A DNA stretch of 64,000 bases from Escherichia coli (GTDB lineage: Bacteria; Pseudomonadota; Gammaproteobacteria; Enterobacterales; Enterobacteriaceae). The stretch lies in the NCBI RefSeq assembly GCF_011045215.1, contig NZ_CP049201.1; one strand, written 5' to 3'. Of the stretch, positions 38,873 through 39,878 are shown in pieces (the stretch's first letter is position 1; each line of letters opens with the position of its first letter). Both the position numbers and the translations under genes were made by a program. The notes beneath the pieces are model-generated. The model saw nothing but the letters and a program-made list of their open reading frames with translations, did not search any database and was not told where the DNA came from.

Positions 38873-39212
38873 ATCATTAAAAACCGAAAATCAAATGATC
38901 TTTTTTCAGTATGAAGGAGCAGATGATAGTCATAATTCTTTGCGCTGTTACAGTTTTTTATTTATGTAAGTATGGATGAAAGGAAAAGAAAGGAAAAATA
39001 TTTTGTTTTTTTGTAATGGTTGTCACGTAATAAATAAAAAGCAATTGATTATATTGCTGTTTTGTGCTGTAAAGAAGTGCTGCGCTCTGTCTGGTACTGA
39101 TTTATTCCGGGGGGAGGGCATGGCAGATGAAGGGATGAACAGGGACTTTTTGTTTAATTCGTTGACAGCAACAGTCATAAGAGAAAGCAACAATTCACAT
39201 ATGGGGCAGTTT

Positions 39213-39878
39213 ATGAAAACTATCTTCATAGCAGAGCCTGTCGTGACGGCAGGTAACAGTAACAGGCTGATTGCGGTGGAGATTCTGAGCCGATTTTATT
39301 CTGTTAACGGAAAACAACTTCCTACCGTGAAAACGCTGAATATGTTTACAGCAGAGATGAAAATTGATTTGCTGGAATTACAGATAAGAAAAATAATAAG
39401 TAAAGCTTCTTTTTTTAGTAAGCATAATATACTGTGTTCCCTTAACGTCGATTATGATACATGTCAGTATATATACAGAAATAAAAATATTCAGGATATA
39501 ATAAAGTCATATGATTTTATTGTTCTTGAAATTTCTGAAACATACCCGGTCATAAAGGCTGATGATGCAATAATTCCTTTTCTCATTAATTTGTCAGAAC
39601 ATATCTGGCTGGATAATTTAGGGAGTGGTAACAGTACCATACATACATTGATAAGAAATAAATACCAGGCAGTGAAACTTGACAAAAGTTTTTTTCAAAA
39701 ACACAGTATGAAACCGCATTTTTCTGCATTAATAGACAATATAAAAGATTTTGCCCTCTGGTTATTGCCGAGGGTGTTGAAAATAAGGATTATCTTCATG
39801 CTGCTTCAGGAACTGGTTTATGGGGTGTTCAGGGATATTATTTTCCATCAGTACAGTTTGAGGATATTCATCAGATAA
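39213..39878 (+). CDS. Degenerate EAL-domain protein (YdiV-like)
   Basis: Blocks resembling recalled YdiV (LDNLGSGNST vs LGNLGAGNST; VKLDKSFFQK vs VMLDKSFIQQ); start uncertain (38976, 39201 or 39213). Confidence 0.55.
   Translation: MKTIFIAEPVVTAGNSNRLIAVEILSRFYSVNGKQLPTVKTLNMFTAEMKIDLLELQIRKIISKASFFSKHNILCSLNVDYDTCQYIYRNKNIQDIIKSYDFIVLEISETYPVIKADDAIIPFLINLSEHIWLDNLGSGNSTIHTLIRNKYQAVKLDKSFFQKHSMKPHFSALIDNIKDFALWLLPRVLKIRIIFMLLQELVYGVFRDIIFHQYSLRIFIR

Follow-up and report, generated by a model that had tools for sequence, protein, structure and literature searches.

The window analysed here, a stretch of 64,000 nucleotides of Escherichia coli DNA, carries on its plus strand an ORF of 300 codons (38976..39878) that a search with the Pfam profile PF00563 recognizes as EAL-like, in line with what a first-pass annotation had proposed. 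A remnant of a YdeO/Rns-type AraC regulator gene diverges from it on the minus strand (38461..38905), and an ISEc8 element (40205..42646, minus strand) and a Pap-like chaperone-usher fimbrial operon (43292..51538, plus strand) follow downstream. Public databases contain the exact 300-residue sequence on two contigs (the longest of 5.41 Mb) under the entry WP_244577037.1, "EAL domain-containing protein [Escherichia coli]". This ORF is a composite of an in-frame 5' non-coding extension corresponding to the first 79 codons (38976-39212, 237 nt), codons 1-178 of an EAL gene (39213-39746) and a tail of 43 out-of-frame codons with their stop (39747-39878), all on the plus strand. Both ends of the ORF are artefactual. 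The native stand-alone EAL coding region extends from 39213 to 39907 on the plus strand, has a GC content of about 34% and comprises 231 codons after restoring a missing A, with an ATG start at 39213 (MKTIFIAEP) and a TGA stop at 39905-39907.

Every retrieved homologue opens with M-x-x-x-(F/Y)-(I/V/M)-(A/V)-E-P, matching the ATG at 39213, and the start called by PGAP for the copy on the chromosome of E. coli C5 is the same. The upstream 237 nt are in frame with the EAL codons because a variable G-run (39109-39114, plus strand) counts six residues in the window, seven in five other copies and eight in plasmid A of strain C5. With the C5 chromosome copy, taken as the more divergent comparison sequence, the coding region (39213-39906) shares 97.8% identity, its differences being 11 synonymous and 4 non-synonymous, as against about 93% identity, with indels, for the 5' stretch and the 3' flank. 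The 237 nt upstream of the ATG thus diverge like non-coding DNA. Since the homologue starts, the G-run and the higher identity of the coding region than of its flanks all agree, the real gene is the one at 39213-39907, and the pattern of substitutions indicates that it evolved under past purifying selection. The G-run, which lies about 100 nt ahead of the EAL start, differs in length (G6, G7 or G8) between copies with 5' regions that are 100% identical apart from it, and its variation could reflect a hypermutable tract affecting expression, or else sequencing noise. A promoter and terminator scan of positions 38250-40250 gave matches no commoner than in shuffled sequence.

The artefactual 3' end results from a one-nucleotide deletion in a run of A residues (39743-39746, plus strand), located by alignment to the three nearest E. 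coli loci and by translation of the alternative frame. The run is A4 in the window and in C5 plasmid A, and A5 in RM8082, where the coding sequence is intact; A5 is also found in the C5 chromosome, in L016-L019 and in L020-L022, for a total of eight copies intact at this site. The change from A5 to A4 therefore shifts the frame, and the EGVE and QG motifs are lost from the product. Past the shift, the alternative frame translates to ...KRFCPLVIAEGVENKDYLHAASGTGLWGVQGYYFPSVQFEDIHQIKLDFSENIS*, which is the missing C-terminal quarter of the EAL domain with both motifs. Strands 183-187 and 205-207 (beta7 and beta8), as placed by an AlphaFold model of the intact allele, lie beyond the shift at residue 178 and are lost.

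The same loss is visible in profile searches. The window ORF matches PF00563 with E=7.1e-11 and 42.4 bits (gathering cut-off 31.3) over profile positions 18-199 of 236 only, and the intact allele with E=1.6e-20 and 74 bits over positions 18-233. The EAL barrel fold was assessed on the intact allele, the window product being without the last two strands. Its AlphaFold model has a pLDDT of 94.5, and all top Foldseek matches are EAL domains with TM-scores of about 0.7-0.86, STM1697 and YdiV scoring 0.83-0.86 and the catalytic EAL domains of YahA and RocR about 0.73-0.78. In a phmmer search of the PDB, the repaired-frame protein likewise finds STM1697 (5hxg, E=2.1e-30) and YdiV (3tlq, E=2.8e-18) ahead of YahA (2.3e-6). 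The first-pass description of the protein as YdiV-like thus holds, STM1697 and YdiV being its nearest characterized relatives by sequence and by predicted fold. The intact allele directly matches PHROG 32988, a family of phage proteins found in P1-like phage-plasmids and annotated as "unknown function" (E=2.5e-87, residues 1-223 against profile positions 1-222 of 229; 7e-157 for a homologue at 55% identity). The best NCBIfam match is PRK11596 (PdeH), with E=3e-24, below the family cut-off. The proteins PdeU1-3 (Cimdins et al. 2017) were considered as identities and rejected, as their motifs differ (EVLIR, ELTE and DDFGTGYAT). Literature searches on tibD/tibB with EAL and on Pde nomenclature returned nothing relevant, and those for a biochemical report on this EAL subfamily found none.

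Catalytic capacity was evaluated on an alignment of the window and intact alleles with PdeH and YdiV of K-12, SfaY of CFT073, STM1697 and 15 homologues sharing 33-56% identity. Eleven residues were checked: E, R, N, E, E, D, D, K, E, E and Q (the E and R of EALxR, N, ExxE, DD, K, EGVE and Q). In the first-pass annotation, the string AVEIL (39273-39287, within LIAVEILSRF) had been read as a degenerate catalytic motif. The full signature is A-V-E-I-L-S-R (39273..39293, plus strand), in which E-I-L-S-R keeps both the Glu (Glu23, 39279-39281) and the Arg (Arg27, 39291-39293) of EALxR, so that this reading does not stand. The 231-aa intact E. coli alleles retain 11 of the 11 residues, as do 13 of the 15 homologues from the first search, the two remaining ones (P0022 and P0028) retaining ten, with a Lys at the Arg position. 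By the same count, PdeH and SfaY keep ten each, both differing at the Arg position, STM1697 keeps seven and YdiV four. In the window copy, the series reads E, R, N, E, E, D, N, K and the rest is lost, leaving the catalytic and metal-binding set incomplete. The gene as evolved therefore has intact catalytic residues on alignment with YdiV and catalytic EAL domains, against the earlier proposal of a degenerate protein acting by protein-protein interaction rather than hydrolysis, whereas the window copy is degenerate by frameshift and D135N. An exhaustive HMMER search gave 87 cluster representatives at E<=1e-10, including 76 full-length ones, among which 32 have all 11 residues and 46 all nine core residues, the others being degenerate to varying degrees.

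Two features depart from textbook phosphodiesterases. Loop 6 reads DDLGSGNST in the intact allele and DNLGSGNST in the window, as compared with DDFGSGNAG in SfaY, which is reported to be an active phosphodiesterase, and the canonical DFG(T/A)GYSS, and the motif preceding the EAL signature is EP, not QP. Loop 6 and the EP motif in this respect resemble those of YdiV, STM1697 and SfaY more closely, EP and a loop 6 of the form GxGN(S/A)T being common to this family, YdiV and STM1697. The latter two, YdiV/RflP (3tlq, 4es4) and STM1697 (5hxg), are enterobacterial anti-FlhD4C2 factors with a stand-alone EAL-like fold of about 225-237 aa, and they are the best solved-structure matches to this family, with 28% and 31% identity, respectively. 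Both neither bind nor cleave c-di-GMP, and the 11 residues of STM1697 in contact with FlhD have been listed (PMC5622320).

As the nearest characterized relatives are non-catalytic, it must be asked whether this protein is also a regulator of the YdiV/STM1697 type, binding FlhD or another protein and repressing motility or controlling fimbriae. Besides the proximity in sequence and fold, STM1697 nests among the small stand-alone EAL proteins in a crude neighbour-joining tree, the homologue at 55% identity is labelled ydiV in one phage record, and the window copy has lost catalytic residues. The comparison of the FlhD contacts (V115, L116, L136, V147, F160, K167, L172, L173, K175, H176 and Y180 in STM1697) gives four identical positions of 11 (L136, F160, K167 and L173) and two conservative ones. 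The central contacts F160 and L173 are thus conserved together with K167, but F160 and K167 are generic EAL-motif positions, most of the interface is changed, with D and N, respectively, in place of the salt-bridge residues K175 and H176. In the window, residues were lost through the frameshift and not by adaptive degeneration, and the intact alleles keep a complete catalytic set where YdiV and STM1697 do not. A non-catalytic regulator is for these reasons unlikely, and although a YdiV-like role in FlhD binding is possible, the catalytic conservation speaks against this being the main function. Because all 11 residues are kept while the FlhD-contact residues are mostly changed, YdiV and STM1697 appear to have in this family a relative of the catalytic type, and the intact protein is most likely a single-domain c-di-GMP phosphodiesterase. 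Judged by its residues, it would hydrolyse c-di-GMP, and the resulting decrease would favour motility over adhesion and biofilm formation.

A broader scenario can be drawn from the same comparisons. The mobile AT-rich EAL genes may form a catalytic-type sister group from which YdiV and STM1697 arose, and its members may be bifunctional, as trigger enzymes combining c-di-GMP hydrolysis with FlhD binding, or may serve as cargo reprogramming host motility, adhesion and cyclic-dinucleotide signalling for the benefit of the element. This scenario is an unlikely one.

The window copy carries a second lesion in addition to the frameshift. A G-to-A transition at 39615 (plus strand) changes GAT to AAT and produces D135N, affecting the second Asp of the DDxGxG metal-binding motif. 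Among the loci compared, this substitution is common to the window and C5 plasmid A only, the eight other copies having GAT. The A4 allele was found on at least 24 contigs, as a 252-aa form in 17, a 250-aa form in five and the 300-aa form in two, and it is annotated by PGAP as a normal CDS. Since it recurs in independent assemblies, A4 is a real allele and not a one-off read error. The 250-aa frameshifted variant still has DD, and D135N is confined to frameshifted copies, as would be the case if decay followed inactivation. Programmed -1 frameshifting at "ATA AAA G" was also considered and rejected, as there is no canonical slippery heptamer and no sign of a stimulatory element, and the linked D135N fits decay.

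The persistence of the frameshifted allele in many isolates makes it possible that the truncated product has a residual function such as binding. Under this explanation, the window protein (EAL residues 1-178 and a novel tail of 43 aa) would keep a role in c-di-GMP or partner binding or act as a dominant negative, and the segment homologous to the FlhD-contact helix of STM1697 is retained up to the shift point. This is nevertheless very unlikely for a product that is without two barrel strands, EGVE and QG, that has decayed further by D135N and whose AraC regulator partner is also dead. Homopolymer lengths such as A4 and G6 are of a type that sequencing sometimes misreads, and both differences lie in homopolymers, the G-run even varying between otherwise identical 5' regions, but the proposal that they are assembly errors or reversible slipped-strand switches, leaving the gene effectively intact or phase-variable, is highly improbable because A4 and the linked D135N occur in independent assemblies, including a complete plasmid, and a run as short as A4 would not slip often. 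The window copy is most likely non-functional, as the frameshift, with its loss of two barrel strands, EGVE and QG, would together with D135N render it inactive.

The divergent AraC-type gene is a remnant as well. It covers approximately codons 11-158, contains an in-frame stop and has no helix-turn-helix domain. Its protein sequence shares 94% identity with an intact 246-aa copy in L020 and about 50% with the AraC-like partners, 234-240 aa long, that accompany EAL homologues. Full-length AraC genes of 234-246 aa are located divergently upstream of EAL homologues in P1-like phage-plasmids, in an ETEC eatA plasmid and in another E. coli island. The partner is intact and divergent in L020-22, L010-12 and L011, where it is typed as YdeO/Rns-like, and it is with a regulator of this YdeO/Rns type that the relatives closest to the window EAL gene are paired. 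The island of L020-22 has an intact AraC gene and an intact EAL gene and is devoid of fimbrial genes. At the DNA level, L020 is homologous to the window from 38461 to about 39992 only. The transferable unit is therefore the AraC-EAL pair, of which the window holds a truncated piece. The GC content of this module is about 34%, as compared with 46-49% in the adjoining DNA. The intergenic region between the two divergent genes measures 283 bp, and in intact copies expression of the EAL gene is probably under the control of the AraC-type partner.

The EAL gene had also been described as lying next to a fimbrial locus, with a possible role in its control. The Pap-like operon does lie downstream, but ISEc8 stands between the two, and the conserved neighbour is the divergent AraC gene. 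ISEc8, of the IS66 family, is 2442 bp long and flanked by an 8-bp target duplication, TGTGGATC, at 40197-40204 and 42647-42654; it sits between the EAL gene and the papB-like regulatory region and is absent from RM8082 and L017. The operon encodes a PapB-like regulator (PF03333, E=6e-28), two pilins, an usher, a chaperone, a PapJ-like protein (PF14855, E=4e-56), minor pilins and a possible adhesin, PapC and PapD domains being detected in an identical island. The L016 island, 99.7% identical in other respects, combines an intact EAL gene with the same IS element and the complete operon. The adjacency of EAL and papB was seen in copies of one island only, from which it is inferred that the position of the EAL gene reflects island mosaicism and not a dedicated regulatory pairing. 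A search for a papI-like gene in the interval from the EAL gene to papB gave no candidate, either in the window or in RM8082. Two GATC sites (43145-43148 and 43247-43250, plus strand) stand exactly 102 bp apart in the T-rich DNA just upstream of the papB-like gene, as do those of the classic Pap Dam/Lrp phase switch. Between these sites, positions 43174-43237 hold short tandemly repeated T/G-rich units of 8-11 nt (such as TTTTTTGTG), whose copy number apparently differs between the window and RM8082 (L002 13836-13965).

Fimbria-linked stand-alone EAL phosphodiesterases are known, as SfaY/PdeY, MrkJ and STM0551 (PMC6385356, PMC5635171, PMC3487979). These small EAL-only proteins have a complete or near-complete catalytic set, are encoded in or beside chaperone-usher fimbrial operons and link c-di-GMP to fimbriation. 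They share only about 25-27% identity with the present protein and are no orthologues of it. With 25% identity to SfaY of CFT073, the present protein has neither orthology with it nor a conserved placement inside a fimbrial operon: SfaY is encoded at the distal end of its own operon, whereas the EAL gene here is upstream of papB, in a linkage that is unconserved outside one island. Unlike the SfaY/MrkJ/STM0551 type, this EAL family has an AraC-type gene as its conserved partner. PdeH (YhjH) of E. coli, with 26% identity, is likewise a single-domain EAL enzyme and a validated phosphodiesterase, but it is encoded by a core chromosomal gene of the flagellar regulon, whereas the present gene is AT-rich cargo of mobile elements.

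The surroundings of the module are composite. Positions 1-25000 correspond to a chromosomal type II secretion (gsp) region, about 94-95% identical to the best complete E. coli matches. From 26865 onward, the island is 99% identical to a 214-kb plasmid of the bovine strain E. coli C5, so that the same island is present on both chromosome and plasmid. It includes a 970-aa ORF (29240-32152, plus strand) annotated as an ankyrin-repeat protein, with faint UvrD/helicase-like Pfam matches, which is preceded by Inovirus Gp2-type and YagK/YfjJ genes; together, these genes suggest an island of the CP4-57 or prophage-remnant type. A 774-aa protein encoded at 35928-38252 (plus strand) has an AraC-type helix-turn-helix at residues 182-259 and shows full-length similarity to the Staphylococcus regulator AryK (NCBIfam E=3e-93, below the family cut-off), an unusually large AraC-family architecture for E. 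coli. Its gene adjoins those of an M20 aminoacylase and an MFS transporter. Beyond the minor pilin genes of the Pap-like operon, three consecutive ORFs of 314-319 aa (50579-53483) possibly encode adhesins, the first one only having a weak match, to the C-terminal domain of the MrpH adhesin. The first two, the only pair compared, are not similar to each other and hence not paralogues.

Mobile elements are the usual location of the family. A survey of 5426 complete E. coli genomes places related genes (about 68% identical in nucleotide sequence) in 174 of them, with plasmids accounting for 170 of the 178 places, while a near-identical EAL gene is present in three genomes only, all bovine. Homologues were encountered in P1-like phage-plasmids, in the ETEC eatA plasmid, next to tibC and in Enterobacter prophages. 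The more distant ones stand either beside tibC, flanked by AraC-type genes, or beside terminase genes in the Enterobacter prophages. The Enterobacter prophages L023-L025 carry two different small stand-alone EAL genes (6001-6705 and about 8900-9900) less than 3 kb apart, just upstream of Nu1/GpA terminase genes, which suggests phage cargo ("moron") acting on c-di-GMP signalling.

Taken together, these results make it fairly likely that the window locus holds an accessory stand-alone EAL gene, borne by mobile elements, in a copy that is decaying. The window copy differs from the members of PHROG 32988 in its chromosomal-island location, its frameshift and the loss of the AraC partner, and it is probably a pseudogene of this family. 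The public record can be corrected in consequence: WP_244577037.1, listed there as an ordinary EAL protein, is most plausibly a pseudogene whose ends are artefacts. The wider PHROG 32988 family bridges the catalytic stand-alone phosphodiesterases and the anti-FlhDC factors YdiV and STM1697. It bears on whether FlhD binding arose before or after the loss of catalysis, and on what phage- and plasmid-borne c-di-GMP enzymes do for their elements.
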